DNA from: a virus
DNA length: 14,469 bases
Virus genome (UHGV): UHGV-0142781
Direction: 5' to 3' (one strand)
Shown: piece by piece, positions 1,546 through 11,426 of the stretch
Position numbering within the stretch: the first letter of the stretch is position 1
How the letters are laid out: each line of letters starts with the position of its first letter
Translations under genes and position numbers: made by a program
Notes under the pieces: generated by a model
The model's database searches: none
What the model was told of the DNA's origin: nothing
The model's input: the letters and a program-made list of their open reading frames with translations, nothing else

Positions 1546-2607
1546 ATGACAAAGAAACAGCGTAAAAATAAAAAATTCGGGTCCATGACCGGCAACAAGG
1601 TTGAAACCTTCACGCCAGGGCGCGGAAGCGTGATCACCTTTGGCGAACCAGAACCCATCCTGACGACCGGCACTGATTATCACAATATCTGGTATGACAA
1701 TGAGTATGACCACTGGCGACTCCCGATTGATCGCCTGGCGCTGGCCCAGTTGCCGAACCTTAACGGCCAGCACGGCGGGGTACTGTATGCGCGGCGCAAT
1801 ATGGTGGCCGGTGGCTATATCGGCGGCGGCCTGACGCCTGACCAGGTCGAACAGGCTGTCTTTGATTACCTGCTGTTTGGTGACGTCGCTATCCTGAAAA
1901 TTCGTAACGTATTCGGGGAAGTGATCGACCTGCTGCCGCTGCCGTCGCTGTATCTGCGCTGCCGGAAAGACGGGTCGTTTGCCGTTCTGCAGGAAGGGCC
2001 AGCGCTTATCTATGACCCGGAAGACATCGTTTTCTTTAAAATGTACGACCCTCGCCAGCAGGTGTATGGCCTGCCTGACTATATCGGCGGCATCCATTCG
2101 GTGTTACTCAACAGTGAGGCAACCATCTTCAGGCGCCGTTACTACAATAACGGGGCGCACATGGGCTTTATTCTCTATACCAGCGATCCGAATCTGACGC
2201 TGGAAATGGAAAACGAAATCAAAGAGAAGATCGCCCAGTCCAAAGGGCTGGGTAACTTCCGCAATATGTTTATCAACATCCCGAAGGGCGACCCGGAAGG
2301 GGTTAAAATCCTGCCGGTGGGCGAAGTCAGCGCAAAGGACGAATTTGCCAACATCAAAGGGATCACCGCACAGGATATCTTTACCGCTCACCGTTTCCCC
2401 GCTGGCCTGGCGGGTATCATCCCGACCAATGGCGCGGTAATGGGCAACCCTGAAACCGCCCGCACAACCTATCGCAAGGATGAAGTTATCCCCTTGCAGC
2501 GCAAGCTAATGAACGGCGTCAACAATGACCCGGAGATCCCCGCACACTTGCACCTGGTTTTTGACGTGGATATCCCAGCAATTACCACCGAAAAGGGCGA
2601 AAAATGA
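1546..2607 (+). CDS. Q: Capsid portal protein (P2 gpQ family)
   Basis: 353 aa; motifs FGEPEP, IFRRRYYNNGAHMGFILY, SKGLGNFRNMF and EVSAKDEFANIKGITAQDIFTAHR match my recollection of P2 gpQ. GGGAAAG RBS at 1533-1539. Confidence 0.85.
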   Translation: MTKKQRKNKKFGSMTGNKVETFTPGRGSVITFGEPEPILTTGTDYHNIWYDNEYDHWRLPIDRLALAQLPNLNGQHGGVLYARRNMVAGGYIGGGLTPDQVEQAVFDYLLFGDVAILKIRNVFGEVIDLLPLPSLYLRCRKDGSFAVLQEGPALIYDPEDIVFFKMYDPRQQVYGLPDYIGGIHSVLLNSEATIFRRRYYNNGAHMGFILYTSDPNLTLEMENEIKEKIAQSKGLGNFRNMFINIPKGDPEGVKILPVGEVSAKDEFANIKGITAQDIFTAHRFPAGLAGIIPTNGAVMGNPETARTTYRKDEVIPLQRKLMNGVNNDPEIPAHLHLVFDVDIPAITTEKGEK

Positions 2608-2930
2608 GCGCAGTTAAGTTAAAATCATCCCCATTGTTAGCAATGGTGTGCGGGATGGTGAACATGCGAGTTTTTAAAATTAAATGTCCTGAATGCGGCT
2701 CACCGGCCATCATTCGCAAATCAGACTGGAAAGATAAAAAACTGGCCGATTTATACTGCGCCTGCACGGAAGTTGAATGCGGCCACACCTTTGTTTTTAA
2801 CGCCCAGTTTTCACATACTCTCAGCCCCAGCGGACTGACCGGCAACAAGCTGGTTAAATTTCTGATTGATCGGCTCAAACCAGACGAAAGACAATTCGCT
2901 TTAGATTTGCTAAACAACCATATTAATTAA
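2604..2930 (+). CDS. Ogr/Delta-family zinc-finger transcriptional activator (late-gene activator type)
   Basis: CPEC-x22-C-TEVE-C-GHTF matches the Ogr pattern C-x2-C-x22-C-x4-C-x2-TF (P2 Ogr: CPLC...CQNVNCSATF). ATG at 2604 overlaps the Q stop TGA at 2605-2607 (ATGA). An alternative start at 2664 (MRVFKIKCPEC) gives an Ogr-sized protein. Confidence 0.7.
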   Translation: MSAVKLKSSPLLAMVCGMVNMRVFKIKCPECGSPAIIRKSDWKDKKLADLYCACTEVECGHTFVFNAQFSHTLSPSGLTGNKLVKFLIDRLKPDERQFALDLLNNHIN

Positions 2931-2982
2931 CCTATAAGCACCGAGTATCTTTATTTAAATGTGATATTTATAAGGAAATATA
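2931..2982 (+). promoter_or_regulatory. AT-rich leader of the cargo cassette (possible promoter plus RBS)
   Basis: Very AT-rich stretch (TTTATTTAAATGTGATATTTATAAGGAAATATA) ending in an AAGGA RBS before the ATG at 2983. No specific -35/-10 assigned. Confidence 0.3.
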
Positions 2983-4818
2983 ATGAGCAATTCAAAATAC
3001 ATTAATTTAGATGCGAGAATAAAAAAACTAAAAGAAGTTGTTAAAGATTTAGACACAAACACTTTAGCAACCTACTCTTTTTGGGAAATGTACAAATTTG
3101 GTACATTAGGTCAAAAAATTGAACTACAATCACCAGCACGACAAATCTTATATCTTTTTGGGATTGCATGTTCATCTGCTGAACCAACCGAACCAACTGA
3201 TAATGTTGAGGGTAAGATAAAACAAACAGTAGAGATCCTAAATGATATTTTTACAAAATATATGTTGGCGTACTTTCCAACCAAAGATGATTTAAAATCT
3301 GGATTAGAAGATGAATGGCATAAAGTTAGAGAAGTTGCTATGCCAATGTTTTCAAACTACTTTTTTGAAGGGTTAAAAGTTTCCACTGAAAACTTCAAAG
3401 GGATCATAAAAAATTATTTCAATGGTTTTGAAAATGAAATAAAAACACATTTTGGCTTAGATCACCATGAAATGGTAGAAATTTTAAATCTCATTGGTGA
3501 GCTTATACAGAGCAAATATGACAGATTCCGTGAAATAATGGATACATTAAAAGACGAACATGAGAAATTTAAAGAGAATAATTTTGAAAAACATGAAGAT
3601 TTTATAACATATATGGATGACATGAGGGAGCGTACAAAACATTTAGCACAAGAATTTCATGACTTCCTCAATGGGAGTGTATCATTCAAGTTTGATTCAA
3701 TAAGATGTAAACTTGGTGACGATGTCGTTGATAGTTTTATAAAAGCTTTCGTTACAGAGCGTGGAAACTCATCCGAAATCAAATACATTACTGATGAGAA
3801 TCCATTTTCATATAAACCGATAGTAACTGTAAATAATCTGGATTATATGCTCCCTTCTGCTAACGCAGCTTATGAAGCTATCATTCTTAATCTTGAAAAG
3901 TTTTTTAAAGAGTCAAAACACAATGATAAATTTAGAAAAGCCCGAGACAACAGGCTGGAACATGAGACTTTTTGCACCTTTAGAAATTTCTTCCCTGAAT
4001 CAACTACAATACTTGAAAGTGTATTTGAAACAAACAAATCCCATAATGAACATGATCTGATTATTTTCCATGATAAAACGATTCTTATTGTAGAGGCTAA
4101 AGCATCACCACGCCGCGCTCCATTGAGAGAACCAGCCAGAGCATACATTAGAATTAGAGATGATTTCAAACGTAAATCAGGAATACAAAGCGCATCTGAA
4201 CAAGCAAATAACTTAAGAAATTTAATCATTAATAATGAAAAAACATCATTATATGATAAAAAAGGTAATTTACTATATACCATAAATCGTTGTGACTACG
4301 ACAATATATATTGTATATGTGTCACTAAAGATGATTTCGGAATGCTTGCTACAAATTTAACTTTAATGTTAGAAAAAAAAGAAGATGAACCCTACCCTTG
4401 GGTTATTTGTATTCAAGACTTGAAGTTTTATTTTGATTGCCTTAAGGAAATAGATTTGGATCATGACTATTTCTTAAATTATATTCGTGAAAGAATAAAA
4501 ATACACGGCAAAGCAACGGCATGTGATGAGCTTGAATATGCAGGTGCATACTTGAATTATGGTGGTTTCGATTTCATTAATAAAGAAGTAAACTCTAACG
4601 TTTGTCTTGATATCTCTGAATCACGAGTATTCGATGAAATCCATATCGAAAAAGTTAATGGCAGGAAATATGTTCACCAGATTAAAAAACCTACTTACAG
4701 CATTTTAAATAGAGATAAATTAATTTCTTCTTTAAATTTCAATCACTCAAACAAAGATGCAAAAAAAGCAAAATCAAAAAGAAAGGAACAGAAAAAATCC
4801 AGAAAAAGAAACCGTTAA
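2983..4818 (+). CDS. Cargo protein with central PD-(D/E)xK-like nuclease motif and poly-basic C-terminal tail; candidate defence effector
   Basis: 611 aa, strongly AT-rich. Residues 356-373 read EHDLIIFHDKTILIVEAK (D-x12-ExK, nt ~4048-4101). C-terminal 23 residues are almost all K/R/S. No Walker A motif. Confidence 0.85.
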   Translation: MSNSKYINLDARIKKLKEVVKDLDTNTLATYSFWEMYKFGTLGQKIELQSPARQILYLFGIACSSAEPTEPTDNVEGKIKQTVEILNDIFTKYMLAYFPTKDDLKSGLEDEWHKVREVAMPMFSNYFFEGLKVSTENFKGIIKNYFNGFENEIKTHFGLDHHEMVEILNLIGELIQSKYDRFREIMDTLKDEHEKFKENNFEKHEDFITYMDDMRERTKHLAQEFHDFLNGSVSFKFDSIRCKLGDDVVDSFIKAFVTERGNSSEIKYITDENPFSYKPIVTVNNLDYMLPSANAAYEAIILNLEKFFKESKHNDKFRKARDNRLEHETFCTFRNFFPESTTILESVFETNKSHNEHDLIIFHDKTILIVEAKASPRRAPLREPARAYIRIRDDFKRKSGIQSASEQANNLRNLIINNEKTSLYDKKGNLLYTINRCDYDNIYCICVTKDDFGMLATNLTLMLEKKEDEPYPWVICIQDLKFYFDCLKEIDLDHDYFLNYIRERIKIHGKATACDELEYAGAYLNYGGFDFINKEVNSNVCLDISESRVFDEIHIEKVNGRKYVHQIKKPTYSILNRDKLISSLNFNHSNKDAKKAKSKRKEQKKSRKRNR

Positions 4819-4872
4819 CAAAATATCCTTTTGACGAATTCAAACCAACTGAACATATGGAGAAAATAAAAC

Positions 4873-6228
4873 ATGAGAATGACCGCCCCATTAAAATCAT
4901 TTTCTGATGGATTTTGTGAGAATGACGACATTTTTGAAAGAAAAAAACTTCACGACATTATTATGCGAGTTGCTACTAACGCGCCTGATAAAAGTTTAGT
5001 TTTAGCATTAGATGATAAATGGGGTAATGGGAAAACTTCATTTGTAAAAATGATGGAATCAGAAATAAGCAAAAAACATTCCGATGATTTCGAAGTCATC
5101 TATTTTGATGCATTTAAAAGTGATTATCAGTCGGATCCATTTGTAGCGTTAACTTCCAATATTTATTCGTTGGTTAGTAATGAAGAAGGCAAGCTAAAAA
5201 CATTAGGTGAAAAATTATTAAGTGCTGGTAAAAAACTAGGAGCTTCATTCCTTTTAAATGGTGCGAAGTTTGCAATCAGTACTATTTCAGGTGGGATGGT
5301 TTCTGGTACTGTAGTCGAAAAGGCAAGTGATACAATATCAGAATCCATATCATCACCTGTAGAAAAATACATAGAAGAAAAGATAAAAGCAAGTGAGAGT
5401 GAGTTTGCTACTATTGAGCAATTTGGAAATTTGTTAACTGAGATATACAAAGAAAGTGGAAAGAAAATATTTTTTATAATTGATGAATTAGACCGTGCAC
5501 GACCTGATTTTTCATTGGATTTATTAGAAAAGATAAAACATATATTCTCAGTAGAGGGTATTATTTTTCTATTGGTCGTCAATCGCGAACAATTTGAAAA
5601 AAGCATTGAGTCTCGATATGGCAATATAAACTCAAGATTGTATCTCAATAAATTTGTTCATTACTGGTTTTCGCTTCCCAAAACAAGCTGTTTATCTGAT
5701 GGTTGCTTAAATGGATATACTTATTCAACTATAAAACGATATTTACTTTCCATTGATAATGGAAACGACTTATTAAGTAGAAATGGTCCGCTTCTTAATA
5801 CACTATCATTGCTTTTGGAAATAAATGGAGCTTCTTTGAGAGAGGCGGAACGCTGTTACTCGGTATTTTCGGTTATCGAAGATGTCAATAAAGTAAACTA
5901 CTATACAAGTGATGCATATAAAGTAGCTTTGGGACTTGTTGTTTTCCTGAAAGTACATAACTCACAGTTGTTAACTGAAATTGTCTTAAAAAAAATCGTG
6001 TTAAAAGAAGCGATAGCCAAGCTTTTAATATACACAGTTCATCACCACAATATAATCGAAGCTCAATTCATTGAATATATCTTAAAGTACCATTACGCAA
6101 CAAATGAAGAATTAATAGAAGAAAGGAAGCAAAGAACATACTCTGATATAGAAGGTGGATATGGTCGAAGAACTCCCCTATTAGAAGGCATGTTTAAAAC
6201 AGTTGAGGGGTTTGATATTAGTTCTTAA
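4873..6228 (+). CDS. KAP-like P-loop NTPase; candidate defence partner
   Basis: 451 aa, AT-rich. Walker A-like DDKWGNGKTSF (res 47-57, nt 5011-5043) and Walker B FFIIDELDR (res 200-208), about 150 residues apart with a hydrophobic stretch between, as in KAP NTPases. 54-bp gap after the upstream gene, same strand. Confidence 0.85.
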   Translation: MRMTAPLKSFSDGFCENDDIFERKKLHDIIMRVATNAPDKSLVLALDDKWGNGKTSFVKMMESEISKKHSDDFEVIYFDAFKSDYQSDPFVALTSNIYSLVSNEEGKLKTLGEKLLSAGKKLGASFLLNGAKFAISTISGGMVSGTVVEKASDTISESISSPVEKYIEEKIKASESEFATIEQFGNLLTEIYKESGKKIFFIIDELDRARPDFSLDLLEKIKHIFSVEGIIFLLVVNREQFEKSIESRYGNINSRLYLNKFVHYWFSLPKTSCLSDGCLNGYTYSTIKRYLLSIDNGNDLLSRNGPLLNTLSLLLEINGASLREAERCYSVFSVIEDVNKVNYYTSDAYKVALGLVVFLKVHNSQLLTEIVLKKIVLKEAIAKLLIYTVHHHNIIEAQFIEYILKYHYATNEELIEERKQRTYSDIEGGYGRRTPLLEGMFKTVEGFDISS

Positions 6229-6319
6229 ACTCTATTTTTTCGCGGACTCTTTGCCGCCCGCCCCGCATCATCGCGCAGATCGACGCAACAAGTTGCGACG
6301 GTCAGCGCGATTGCATTCA

Positions 6320-8932
6320 TTATTTTGGGTGACTACCATCCACACCCGCCAGCATTTTTTGATACTCCCCGACCGGATCAAACCGCAGGCGCGTGGCATC
6401 AATACCGTGGTTATCACGCAGACGGTCCCATAATTTATTCACCGTCCGTGACTCATCGAGTAATTGACGCGTTATCAACTCGCCGCCAGCACTGCCCCGA
6501 TAAACTTTGCCGCCAATCTCCAGACGGCTCCCCATTAACAGCGAAACAGCCTGAATCTCTGAAATCTCAACCGAACACAACGCCGCATCAGCCAGCAGAC
6601 TGGCAACCTCAGGGGCAAGCGCTGCCCGCCTGGCTTTTTCAGCCGCCGATCTGGCCTCGGTTTTTTTAACGGCAGAACGCCAGGCAACATCTAATTCGCT
6701 CCCTGGCTCATAAGGTGATCCGCTTTGCCGCCTTTTGAATGGTGCTTCACGTAGTCGCCGCATCAATTTTCGCCGCGTTGGCTGGTCCATATTTTCAAAA
6801 TCGACGATTTCCTCTTCTGATTCTTCTGTCATACCCTCCACATCACGCGAAAAATCGGTGATTTTTTCGTCTTCCGTAGAGTTATTGACAGAACTCCAAG
6901 CGTCGCCGGTTGGCGACGGCAAAAGGTCAACCCCCAAACCGGGGCCGTTTTTGGCCTCGGTGGTAGCTTTAGATTTGGCGCAGATTTTCCACTTAACCAG
7001 ACGGGTACAAATACGGGAGGCATCACCCAGACGCGGCGACCAGACCCCGAAAACCTTTTCGGGGATCTCACAATAAGCATTCATTTCATCAGCTGGCTGA
7101 TAGGCCAGACGGACGACATAGTTTTCTCGCGGGATCAAAACCCCACCCTGGCGGATGATGTAGGTAGCAAAGCACCCGACATCGGCAGCGGCGCAAACCG
7201 CATCCATTGCAGGATCCACAAGCAACGGCGCACCGCGTTTGAAGGTATTGTCAATTTTCTGGCGGGTCGTGATTTGATTGCTCAGTTTGCGCAGCTCGCG
7301 GTAAACCGATATGGGCGGCTGTCCGATAGGCTGAAACTGGCGGATACGGTGAAGCGATGCCCAGGCCATTGCATATTTGGCGGTTTCATTCAGCGGCTTG
7401 CCGCTTTCGTCGTCCAGTTCACCGGCCAGCGCGTGGCCGTCGATATTCTTCGAAATGTATTTAGCGATATATGCCGTTGCCGACCCTTTCCGTGGGTCCA
7501 TTTTTTTTGACTTGAAACGAGCACCGGTATTGCGGCCCAGCTCATCGCGGTCTTCCGCAATGAAGTAGGCGCGAAGGATCGCAACCGTGGCTTTGACTTG
7601 CTCTTGTGGCATAAACAGCAACGCGTGCCAGTGTGGTGTCCCATCGTGATGCGGCTCGGCGACACGGAAGCCATAAGGGCGCAAATCTTCGCGTTTCAGT
7701 TTGGCGGTTGCACGGTTCCATACACGGCATAAATAGCGCTGCGCCTGGGCGACGGTGGAATGATTCCATTTGGCATTATGGTGGCCGGACGCAATATTAC
7801 TGTGATATTTCGACGGGCAAGTGATGGTCAGGAAAATACCAACATCGCCGCGACTTTGGGCGACAAGTTCAACGCCAGCCATTCTGGTCATAAGCTCATG
7901 GCGACGAATAGCCGGGTTAGACGTGGATTTATTAATCATTTCCTCAAGCGACGAAACGTTGCCGTCTTCGTCTACCAGTTCATGACTTTTGAAAAAATCC
8001 CGGTTTTTACGGCGCTGTTCCTGCCACTCGATCAGGCTGGAAGCGCTAACGTAGGCGTGCGCTTTTTTATTTACCGCGCCAACAGCACGCAGCTGGTTCT
8101 CGCGCCAGTCACAACGCAAGCGCCAGATTTTTCGCCCCCACCAGTCAGGCGAAGCCATACGCAAAATGGCCGTGCATATGCGCTCGCGTTCCCACGGCGC
8201 ATACCATGCAGGCGGCACAATACGAAGCGCCAGCATTTCTCGGCCCAGGTGGCAATAAAGCCAGTCCAGTTCTTCGACGTTCATGTCGGAAACATTCCGC
8301 CCTAGGGCTTCGCATTCCGTCCCCAGCATTTCAGCCATGCGGCTGGCGATCTCATTAGCGGCGCTTAGTGCATCCCGCTTTGTGAAATCAGCCAGACGTT
8401 GCCAGCGCCCGAACCAGTACGCGGCCAGTTCGCCGGTGATATCAGGCGAAACACCTTGCCTTGTGCGTACAACATCAAGACGCAGCAATGATTTTTTCAC
8501 GGTTCCCATAAGAAAATCATTGGTGTGTCTGGTTTCACGGTTGACCCGTAACCACTCAATTTTTTTTCGCCAGACTTCACGAATGAAGAACGGCTCTGCT
8601 AATAAACGCGCTTCGACACCTTCCGGCGTATTGGTCCAGGCTGCCGTCGTAGATTTGGCGGCTTCCATTTCCTGCCGGATTAAATTTTGATGGGCGGCCA
8701 GTGGCAGGCCGCACGGTTCGTACCTGTCCAGCGCCTGGATAAGCGCGTTACGGTCCCGCACCTCGTCGGGGTTGTAACCGGCGTGTCTGAAGATGTGATC
8801 GATGTGTTTTTTTACGGCAGGATGATGCGCCACCGCCCCGGCAAGCGGGGCGATTTTTTTCGGTTCGTAGGTGTACAGGCCAACAGCTGGGCGCGGCGCG
8901 TTCCAGGGCCATGCAAAAGCTGTGTCAGACAT
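6320..8932 (-). CDS. A: Replication initiation protein (P2 gpA family rolling-circle endonuclease)
   Basis: About 870 aa at the expected position upstream of the cargo slot; identified by size, synteny and general resemblance to gpA. ORF track starts at a GTG at 8950; the ATG at 8930-8932 (MSDTAF...) is the more likely start. Confidence 0.85.
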   Translation of the reverse strand: MSDTAFAWPWNAPRPAVGLYTYEPKKIAPLAGAVAHHPAVKKHIDHIFRHAGYNPDEVRDRNALIQALDRYEPCGLPLAAHQNLIRQEMEAAKSTTAAWTNTPEGVEARLLAEPFFIREVWRKKIEWLRVNRETRHTNDFLMGTVKKSLLRLDVVRTRQGVSPDITGELAAYWFGRWQRLADFTKRDALSAANEIASRMAEMLGTECEALGRNVSDMNVEELDWLYCHLGREMLALRIVPPAWYAPWERERICTAILRMASPDWWGRKIWRLRCDWRENQLRAVGAVNKKAHAYVSASSLIEWQEQRRKNRDFFKSHELVDEDGNVSSLEEMINKSTSNPAIRRHELMTRMAGVELVAQSRGDVGIFLTITCPSKYHSNIASGHHNAKWNHSTVAQAQRYLCRVWNRATAKLKREDLRPYGFRVAEPHHDGTPHWHALLFMPQEQVKATVAILRAYFIAEDRDELGRNTGARFKSKKMDPRKGSATAYIAKYISKNIDGHALAGELDDESGKPLNETAKYAMAWASLHRIRQFQPIGQPPISVYRELRKLSNQITTRQKIDNTFKRGAPLLVDPAMDAVCAAADVGCFATYIIRQGGVLIPRENYVVRLAYQPADEMNAYCEIPEKVFGVWSPRLGDASRICTRLVKWKICAKSKATTEAKNGPGLGVDLLPSPTGDAWSSVNNSTEDEKITDFSRDVEGMTEESEEEIVDFENMDQPTRRKLMRRLREAPFKRRQSGSPYEPGSELDVAWRSAVKKTEARSAAEKARRAALAPEVASLLADAALCSVEISEIQAVSLLMGSRLEIGGKVYRGSAGGELITRQLLDESRTVNKLWDRLRDNHGIDATRLRFDPVGEYQKMLAGVDGSHPK

Positions 8933-9146
8933 TGGATGCCCCGCTATCACCCTCCCGCTGGGAATGTTTTTCGATTAGCGGGTCGAGTAACACATTGAAA
9001 GAAATCAACAGCGTATTTGCGGCTTCACTTCCGGCGAGAACACCCGCGAACGTTGCGTGTGCAAGGGCCAGTGTTTTGGCTTCGTTAAGCGCAGCCAGTG
9101 CGCCGCGCTGGTATTCCGAAAGACCGTTATTAATTTTGTTAGCCAT
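8925..9146 (-). CDS. Small hypothetical phage early protein
   Basis: 73 aa; its ATG overlaps the dam stop (TGATG at ~9144-9148), suggesting translational coupling; position matches the small ORFs before A in P2. Confidence 0.6.
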   Translation of the reverse strand: MANKINNGLSEYQRGALAALNEAKTLALAHATFAGVLAGSEAANTLLISFNVLLDPLIEKHSQREGDSGASNV

Positions 9147-10946: not shown

Positions 10947-11426
10947 ATGAAATTCAATGTGTTTTTTAAAAAAGACCACGGATCACACTGGGTGCTTTCC
11001 GATGATTCCCCCCTCTTTGAAAGTCCACTATTTGAAACAAGACCTAAAGCCATTGATGACCTTGAGAACTTTGTAGGCCTTATGGAATCGCCAATCTTTA
11101 TTAAGGCTGGTGACGATATTAATTCTGGCGATACAGAAAACTGTCCATCTGTAGTAATTTCTTTAAAACAGCATGAATCGCTATGGGGCTGGGAATTATT
11201 TATCTCAAAAAATGGACAACTTTCTAAAGTTACCGAAAGTTCAGGTAATGGCTTTGACTCATTAGAATTAGCAAAGCAAAGTGCCCAGTTTTTCCTTAAT
11301 GCCATTATCGACGCTCCTATTCTGGATCAAGCCGATGTCGCTATCCCCGGCATGCACTTCTCAAAATCTTTCGAGGAAACGCACCACATTGGTGACACTC
11401 ACCCATCTAGTAAATGGTTCAAATAA
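10947..11426 (+). CDS. AT-rich hypothetical protein (moron), antisense to the early operon
   Basis: ATG at 10947 with AGGAG RBS at 10936-10940 (ORF track extends to 10899). 159 aa, visibly AT-richer than neighbours; no recognisable motifs. Confidence 0.7.
   Translation: MKFNVFFKKDHGSHWVLSDDSPLFESPLFETRPKAIDDLENFVGLMESPIFIKAGDDINSGDTENCPSVVISLKQHESLWGWELFISKNGQLSKVTESSGNGFDSLELAKQSAQFFLNAIIDAPILDQADVAIPGMHFSKSFEETHHIGDTHPSSKWFK

Follow-up and report, generated by a model that had tools for sequence, protein, structure and literature searches.

Do two adjacent genes in a phage defence hotspot form one two-gene system, or are they two genes that happen to lie side by side? The question is raised by the virus genome UHGV-0142781 (14,469 nucleotides, here called the window), in which two AT-rich open reading frames, ORF1 and ORF2, lie between the portal gene and the replication gene A (gpA) of a P2-like element. 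P2-like phages have their main defence hotspot in the GpA-portal interval, and most of the tested hotspot cargo of unknown kind protects against phages (PMC9122126; 10.64898/2026.02.27.708500). A preliminary description of the window had taken the two genes for one uncharacterised anti-phage system combining a PD-(D/E)xK-motif protein with a KAP-like nucleoside triphosphatase (NTPase), one acting as sensor and the other as effector. Our analysis makes it likely that the slot instead holds two independent, separately exchangeable single-gene cassettes, a self-contained nuclease and a stand-alone KAP NTPase, which are probably co-transcribed here.

Borders and composition of the cargo slot

The open reading frames of 611 and 451 amino acids (aa) are co-directional, separated by 54 base pairs (bp) and convergent with gpA (876 aa), and their lengths and spacing agree with those described before. 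The interval itself had been delimited as portal to gpA, 2931-6319. Cargo is indeed present between these two genes, but the gene for an Ogr/Delta late activator sits between the portal gene and ORF1, so that the slot extends from ogr to gpA, and the breakpoints of homology place the variable region at 2916-6240. The low G+C content claimed for the interval was confirmed by exact computation: it is 0.314 over 2916-6240 (0.310 in ORF1 and 0.326 in ORF2) versus 0.540 in the portal gene and 0.542 in gpA. Along the sequence, the values stay at 0.29-0.34 over ~3000-6000 and at 0.51-0.57 on either side, a difference far beyond the variation found elsewhere in the window.

The backbone of the element matches Salmonella phage SI7 (Peduoviridae, Irrigatiovirus), which has the same portal-Ogr-slot-gpA layout with a different cargo, a methylase gene and a small open reading frame on the opposite strand. 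The contents of the slot are horizontally acquired, AT-rich cargo, and related phages hold other cargo at the same site, as expected from the variable P2-like hotspot that had been proposed. The variable cargo slot, 2916-6240, runs from the Ogr gene to the cos-proximal end of gpA and belongs, in our description, to a Citrobacter prophage remnant of the P2 family that resembles Irrigatiovirus.

Comparison with relatives located the junctions within this slot. Position 2915 is the last to share backbone homology with relatives that are KAP-only, nuclease-only or free of cargo. In two prophages carrying only a KAP gene (L045 and L012), homology breaks off at 2915 and returns at 4860, 13 bp before the start of ORF2, from where it continues into gpA with 88-89% DNA identity. 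In two prophages carrying only the nuclease gene (L035 and L038), homology runs from 1468 to 4806/4819, and in SI7 it is lost at 2915 and regained at 6241. The breakpoints at 2915, 4860 and 6241 thus divide the slot into a nuclease module (2916-4859) and a KAP module (4860-6240). As homology to the relatives stops 15 bp before the ogr stop codon, the recombination junction includes the 3' end of ogr.

The two modules also differ in their divergence. Only one other lineage carries the pair (L033/L034); its ORF1 is 97% identical to that of the window, with a synonymous divergence (Ks) of 0.044, and its ORF2 is 81% identical, with a Ks of 0.52. This twelvefold gap with respect to L033 indicates that one of the two alleles was exchanged. 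Both genes are under purifying selection, the ratio of nonsynonymous to synonymous divergence (Ka/Ks) being 0.13-0.25 (0.13-0.23 for ORF2).

Distribution of the two genes

Co-occurrence was counted in sampled loci, with up to 80 loci per scan. Relatives of ORF2 (72-75% identity) make up the entire cargo of Salmonella and IMG/VR prophages (L012 and L044-L047), where the KAP gene lies ~115 bp from ogr and ~100 bp from gpA. The portal, Ogr and gpA proteins of L012, L045, L046 and L047 are 94-99% identical to those of the window. An ORF2-family protein is also the sole slot cargo in L048. In IMG/VR, 40 loci carrying the ORF2 family (38-75% identity to ORF2) were analyzed; nearly all of them lie between portal and gpA on P2-like backbones of great diversity, and none contains an ORF1 relative. 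The KAP family also occurs beside unrelated cargo: an Old/AriA/GajA-like 616-aa ATPase gene upstream (L052, 3798-5648), a DUF488/PDC-M45B gene and a DuOB protein downstream (L043, 8146-9366), HicAB in Serratia (L016:7410-8047) and a 430-aa gene without assigned family (L051). The 616-aa gene was considered as a diverged ORF1 homologue and rejected, as it is Old/AriA-like. When 44 loci were searched for a gene that regularly accompanies the KAP family, only phage backbone genes were retrieved.

The nuclease gene showed the same independence. Prophages of Hafnia paralvei and Enterobacter bugandensis carry an ORF1 relative (74% and 69% identity, respectively) and no other cargo. No KAP gene was detected near the ORF1 relatives of 14 species-representative genomes from several phyla (GTDB) or of three IMG/VR viral contigs, and no conserved partner of the nuclease family was found among the neighbours of 16 loci. 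In Actinobacillus, the ORF1 homologue is alone among housekeeping genes. In Pseudomonas viridiflava, the homologue (L083:9890-11677) is followed 39 bp downstream by the gene of a 595-aa protein without family match, in which a PD-(D/E)xK-like 'D...VVEVKG' stretch is present, and this gene pair adjoins VgrG and PAAR genes. The 595-aa gene was rejected as a nuclease partner: it is unrelated to KAP and was seen at no other locus fetched.

Decay of one gene beside the other was observed in Klebsiella pneumoniae prophages. The order is reversed there, KAP then nuclease, and the KAP gene is an internally deleted pseudogene (L007:7561-7960) that retains residues 1-109 (67% identical to ORF2), a stop codon and the relic 'VEGFTVSR*', compared with 'VEGFDISS*'. 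The nuclease gene directly downstream of this relic is intact, 44% identical to ORF1 and present in 45 collection blocks.

These observations bear directly on the possibility of an obligate two-gene nuclease-NTPase system, in which the KAP protein would sense infection or load and activate the nuclease, as in Hachiman, AbpAB, PD-T4-4 and Menshen. Such a system would account for two co-directional genes of similar G+C content that are separated by 54 bp without a terminator and kept together in two Citrobacter-type lineages, and defence systems commonly pair a nuclease with an NTPase and assemble the two proteins into a complex (10.1101/2025.07.10.664194). Each gene is however the sole cargo of related prophages, Klebsiella lost KAP and retained the nuclease in reversed order, the breakpoints are distinct, the Ks values differ twelvefold, and neither ORF1 nor ORF2 matches a PADLOC model of a known nuclease-NTPase pair. 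The pair was not found again at any of 40 KAP loci or of 17 other nuclease loci. An obligate pair is consequently extremely unlikely, and the independent distribution, the KAP decay, the breakpoints and the Ks values all speak against the single sensor/effector system of the preliminary description.

Had adjacency in the hotspot been taken as evidence of a system, a spurious two-gene 'system' would have been defined at this locus. The two gene orders in two lineages, the decay of a partner and the replacement of an allele rather show P2-family hotspots stacking and swapping single-gene cassettes.

Co-transcription and possible coupling

Several points nevertheless weigh against full independence of the two cassettes, or against the defence role that we propose for them. 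The upstream region and the terminator that precede the KAP gene in KAP-only phages (L012) are missing before the KAP gene of the window and the 54-bp spacer has no terminator-like site, so that, judging from the DNA, ORF1 and ORF2 are probably co-transcribed here, and some functional coupling is therefore possible. A promoter and terminator scan of 2500-6500 was uninformative (12 promoter-like sites versus 16.4 expected), and none of its sites fell in the spacer. In 3 of ~8 P2-slot lineages the nuclease is found together with KAP, whether intact or decayed, which could be more than chance stacking. Outside P2 phages, the neighbours of the nuclease family give a modest defence-island signal: PADLOC matched one type I restriction-modification system, two mad2 genes and one Argonaute-associated nuclease among 88 neighbours of such loci, a result on which no weight is placed here. 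The defence library used was PADLOC of 2023, and a named system more recent than this release may cover ORF1. A literature search retrieved no mention of PDC-S20, the PADLOC family to which ORF2 belongs, and no experiment on either family.

The probable co-transcription, together with the three slot lineages in which the nuclease is accompanied by KAP or a relic of it, would also suit two autonomous systems that cooperate when stacked, through synergy or cross-regulation, so that co-transcription yields a phenotype broader than the sum of its parts. A preprint on co-occurring defence systems is said to have described synergy between such systems. For a KAP-like protein, synergy of Tmn with Gabija is cited in PMC12632615. 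KAP is however stacked equally readily with unrelated cargo and the nuclease outlives the decay of KAP, and we regard cooperation as unlikely compared with two cassettes acting separately.

ORF1 belongs to a family of PD-(D/E)xK proteins

The residues D358, E371 and K373 of ORF1, found in 'EHDLIIFHDKTILIVEAKA', had been correctly numbered and, like K54 of ORF2, are conserved in relatives. Among 96 relatives of ORF1, E356, H357, E371 and K373 are invariant, and E326 and D358 are conserved in at least 90%. The AlphaFold model of ORF1 is confident, with a predicted local distance difference test score (pLDDT) of 90.2 and a predicted template modelling score (pTM) of 0.86; an all-helical domain makes up the N-terminus (~1-256) and is followed by the alpha/beta nuclease core in the centre, by a helical domain at the C-terminus and by a long terminal helix of basic character. 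ORF1 thereby has both hallmarks of PD-(D/E)xK membership, an alpha/beta core and conserved acidic residues with a lysine. The Pfam NERD profile (PF08378) gave a sub-threshold score with ORF1 (16.7 bits for a gathering cut-off of 22.1, E-value (E) 0.011); many family members 44% identical to ORF1 have a precomputed PF08378 match and bear the NCBI name NERD protein. Profile searches, structure prediction and fold search together upheld the identities proposed for both proteins, the PD-(D/E)xK core of ORF1 and the KAP NTPase of ORF2 (Pfam KAP_NTPase, E 3.4e-39), whereas the pairing matched no known system model in PADLOC (2023).

No match to ORF1 was found in PADLOC (2023), NCBIfam or the functional PHROGs, nor by tblastn against phages, and profiles of the ORF1 and ORF2 families gave no useful match to Protein Data Bank (PDB) sequences. 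A word-indexed search retrieved 134 relatives, which form a well-conserved full-length family of ~600 aa. Among 1.84 billion representatives, this family amounts to at least 490 clusters (50% identity) at E<=1e-30 and 1692 at E<=1e-10. Its hosts are Enterobacterales, Pseudomonas, Vibrio, Acinetobacter, Actinobacillus, Bacteroidota, Acidobacteria and metagenome-assembled genomes of Chloroflexi type. A homologue with 31% identity over 90% of the length is carried by the Firmicutes plasmid pEYLC1.1 of Exiguobacterium (L086, 6977-8773), where it adjoins a HEPN-domain gene and an IS3 element, and a partial match to the family was found on the haloarchaeal plasmid NZ_CP119990.1 (Halobaculum marinum). 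Judging by sequence and predicted fold, ORF1 represents an uncatalogued family within a known kind, the single-protein PD-(D/E)xK defence nucleases, with a putative role in defence.

The C-terminal tail of the family is polybasic in 82 of 112 relatives, and in ~20 the SEC-C zinc motif (CxCxSGKKYKxC[CH]) occupies the same site. In alignment columns 601-670 the two forms read '..KxQKKSRKRNR' or 'GRNEPCxCGSGKKYKxCCG'. A metagenomic member of 814 aa (P0353) combines the SEC-C tail with an N-terminal extension of ~200 aa.

Comparison of ORF1 with characterized nucleases

The nearest solved fold to ORF1 is Upx (PDB 9wuf), a single-protein PD-(D/E)xK defence from Gao et al. Upx has ~1270 aa in an NTD-MD-CTD architecture with dual nuclease (PMC13099982); it is a monomer that senses terminase and whose FokI-like core is under the control of the remaining domains. 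Only 270 residues take part in the structural match, with 9-12% identity. Upx is about twice as long as ORF1 and has two nuclease domains, the canonical core being C-terminal, whereas in ORF1 a single core occupies the centre and the tail is basic or, in relatives, of SEC-C type. With a single core in 611 aa and no match to a PADLOC profile or a PDB sequence, ORF1 was rejected as an Upx protein.

A second analogue is ZwsA (Zowangsin), a stand-alone NERD-domain RNA endonuclease directed against single-stranded RNA phages in Pseudomonas aeruginosa. It too is encoded by a single gene, as a NERD-type nuclease (the core of ORF1 is NERD-like) with an added nucleic-acid-binding module, and the spacing of its residues E535/D567/E580/K582 (32, 13, 2), compared by published residue numbers only, equals that of E326/D358/E371/K373 in ORF1. 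The VHS, DUF647 and S4 domains of ZwsA are however not evident in ORF1. The catalytic residues of P0353 (E526, D558, E571 and K573) are 9 positions from those reported for ZwsA. No link to ZwsA was made through P0353, as the relatives of P0353 are Gemmatimonadaceae-like and none is from P. aeruginosa.

Bandua, from the P4 hotspot, is validated hotspot cargo that also contains a NERD/PD-(D/E)xK nuclease (4A), in combination with a kinase (4B). The tail of 4A ('...QKKARKLNRKRK' / 'KSQKKARKLNRKRK') resembles that of ORF1 ('...QKKSRKRNR'). Unlike ORF1, 4A has an N-terminal nuclease domain, has a kinase as partner and resides on a P4 satellite and not in a P2 phage. The assignment of ORF1 as Bandua 4A was rejected: the family profile gave E 0.16, BLASTP aligned only the last ~85 residues (E 0.001) and the slot contains no kinase gene.

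Because the closest analogues, Upx and ZwsA, are single-protein nucleases, we propose for ORF1 an auto-inhibited nuclease that would be freed by a phage cue. By analogy with Upx, the flanking domains would sense this cue or keep the nuclease inactive, and the released nuclease would cleave phage or host nucleic acid. The polybasic or SEC-C tail would anchor the protein to an anionic partner, be it nucleic acid, the ribosome or a membrane. A bolder, speculative and rather unlikely version is that ORF1 represents a new, widespread class of single-protein immune nucleases, tethered by an interchangeable tail to ribosomes, RNA or membrane, where infection would unleash RNA or DNA cleavage; the tethering would resemble that suggested by the metal-binding tail of SecA/YecA, and the similar tail of Bandua 4A could then hint at a shared targeting module. 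The ORF1 family, of ~600 aa, absent from PADLOC, NCBIfam and PHROG annotations and with defined catalytic residues, is a clean candidate, and its tail suggests a targeting mechanism.

ORF2 is a KAP P-loop NTPase of the PDC-S20 family

ORF2 matches the Pfam KAP_NTPase profile (PF07693) with 135.3 bits for a cut-off of 20, and phrog_8614 with E 2e-130. PADLOC PDC-S20 matches residues 18-415 of 451, near full-length (E 8.9e-72), and the gene occurs singly, as do PDC-S entries, which are single open reading frames in PADLOC output (PMC11514479). ORF2 is thus, by its profile, a member of the already catalogued candidate family PDC-S20, with a presumed anti-phage role, and a lone gene in the slot like other members of that family. 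The preliminary description had called the pair uncharacterised and had not recognized it as a named system; such a label holds for ORF1 and not for ORF2. PDC-S20 gives ORF2 a name and no mechanism, because this family is only a bioinformatic candidate that the literature search did not encounter. Since PDC-S20 very commonly forms the sole cargo of the Peduoviridae hotspot, it is a good choice for validation.

The AlphaFold model of ORF2 (pLDDT 80) has a helical C-terminal half. The insert between the Walker motifs (residues 127-163) is Gly/Ala/Ser-rich and was modelled without confident hydrophobic helices, and the flanking Gly/Ala-rich consensus is conserved. Other KAP NTPases reportedly have membrane helices inserted at this position of the P-loop domain, a feature said to go back to Aravind et al. 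in 2004. The best solved matches in Foldseek were the RdrA rings of RADAR, followed by ORC/Cdc6 and clamp loaders.

Four named systems were compared with ORF2 and rejected as its identity. RdrA, the ring-forming ATPase of the anti-phage system RADAR, is the best solved structural match (E 2.7e-5, probability 1.0, template modelling score ~0.44), but identity is 13%, RdrA has ~830 aa and its partner deaminase RdrB is absent here; with no RdrA match in PADLOC and no deaminase gene, the likeness to RADAR is structural only. PifA of the F plasmid gave a profile match (E 1.8e-17), in which only residues 33-271 of ORF2 align (profile positions 32-256 of 720), short of full-length similarity. QatA of the Qat system matched in the NTPase domain only (E 3e-14); the NCBIfam score was 47.4 bits for a cut-off of 600 and no QatBCD genes are present in the slot. 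Reve (586 aa), from the P4 hotspot, has only the Walker motifs in common with the ORF2 family. Reve and EF_KAP are validated single-gene KAP defences, Reve giving up to 10^5-10^6-fold protection against Drexlerviridae and EF_KAP relying on its Walker B motif. With these two, ORF2 has the NTPase core alone in common, and the N-terminal membrane helices and the 322-aa effector region of EF_KAP are not found in it. Like PifA and other single-gene KAP defences, ORF2 would act as a nucleotide-dependent oligomeric switch set off by infection, which would fit the RdrA/ORC-like fold and the intact Walker motifs of the protein.

The prophage element and the role of its cargo

Proteins identical or 98% identical to ORF1 and ORF2 come from Citrobacter, and the same locus was found on twelve contigs. 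In the longest contig the element is only ~15 kilobases long (L001:3640-18773) and flanked by the host genes for a U32 peptidase and ClpA. It contains integrase, repressor, cox, fil, methyltransferase, gpA, cargo, ogr, portal and a few baseplate-type genes. Genes for terminase, scaffold and capsid are all missing between the U32 peptidase and ClpA genes of this contig, and the element is therefore a prophage remnant. Upstream of the portal gene of the window, minus-strand baseplate-type genes, HP1_ORF34 (244-786) and phrog_1677 (758-1552), take the place of the terminase gene. The cargo has outlasted the phage itself in this remnant. Searched against complete Escherichia coli genomes and the INPHARED phages, the cargo DNA gave no match except at the gpA edge.

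The slot cargo recalls old and tin of P2 in its place in the GpA-portal interval, its low-G+C moron character and its single-gene exclusion functions (PMC9122126), which for ORF1 and ORF2 are proposed by analogy. There is no sequence relationship between old or tin and ORF1 or ORF2, and the Ogr gene lies here between the portal gene and the cargo.

One or both genes might serve the prophage in another way, as an addiction or toxin module, in plasmid or satellite exclusion, in counter-defence or as a replication accessory. The nuclease family is found alone among housekeeping genes (Actinobacillus), near type VI secretion genes (Pseudomonas) and on plasmids, its defence-island signal is modest, and the functions of both genes are deduced by analogy; for PifA, phage restriction is perhaps not the primary role (PMC12632615). 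The site is however the leading defence hotspot in P2-like phages, in which unknown genes have mostly proved protective when tested, and the cargo is kept in a decayed prophage. Furthermore, ORF2 falls in a defence-candidate family and the closest solved fold to ORF1 is a defence nuclease. Such alternative roles are thus very unlikely, and two single-gene cassettes with a putative anti-phage function remain the preferred interpretation.

Features of the locus

The positions of the features discussed above are listed in Table 1.

Table 1. Coordinates of the cargo slot, its modules and the adjoining backbone genes in the window
Feature	Position	Strand	Description
Portal gene	1546..2607	+	Phage backbone; Pfam Phage_portal E 3.4e-13; 95-99% identity to the portal of related prophages with other cargo
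Ogr/Delta zinc-finger late activator, 108 aa	2604..2930	+	Left border of the slot; Pfam Ogr_Delta E 2.6e-17; phrog_603 E 4.6e-41
Nuclease cassette	2916..4859	+	Leader, ORF1 and 41 bp of trailing sequence; G+C 0.307
ORF1, 611 aa	2983..4818	+	ATG start; helical N-terminal domain, central NERD-like PD-(D/E)xK core, helical C-terminal domain, polybasic tail
Catalytic core codons of ORF1	3958..4101	+	E326 3958-3960; D358 4054-4056; E371 4093-4095; K373 4099-4101
Polybasic C-terminal tail of ORF1, residues 587-611	4741..4815	+	13 K/R in the last 25 residues
Spacer, 54 bp	4819..4872	+	ORF2 ribosome-binding site GGAG 4859-4862; no terminator-like site
KAP cassette	4860..6240	+	G+C 0.324
ORF2, 451 aa	4873..6228	+	ATG start; KAP-family P-loop NTPase, PADLOC PDC-S20 family, from profiles and predicted fold
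Walker A of ORF2	5023..5040	+	G51-N-G-K54-T-S56 (GNGKTS); G51, G53 and K54 invariant in 114 relatives
Low-confidence insert of ORF2, residues 127-163	5251..5361	+	Between Walker A and Walker B; pLDDT 27-36
Walker B of ORF2	5482..5493	+	D204-E-L-D207 (DELD); D204, E205 and D207 invariant
Right border of the slot	6241..6319	.	Conserved backbone segment; G+C 0.571; GC-rich run and inverted repeat GACGCAAC..GTTGCGAC
Replication gene A (gpA)	6320..8950	-	Phage backbone; Pfam Phage_GPA E 4.9e-107

At the left border, the start of ogr overlaps the portal stop codon by 4 nucleotides, and the G+C content of ogr (0.43) is between those of the backbone and the cargo. At the right border, the segment 6241-6319 also holds 'CTCTTTGCCGCCCGCCCCGC' and is kept in SI7, L012, L033 and L045 regardless of the cargo. 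Its base composition is similar to that of the P2/P4 cos core; a cos site and a terminator are candidate roles. On the far side of gpA, the window contains a 159-aa open reading frame (10947-11426, +) that matches phrog_9021, of unknown function, and no Pfam family and lies on the strand opposite to the surrounding early genes, in a region of lower G+C content (~0.42); it may be a further moron, located between fil and cox.

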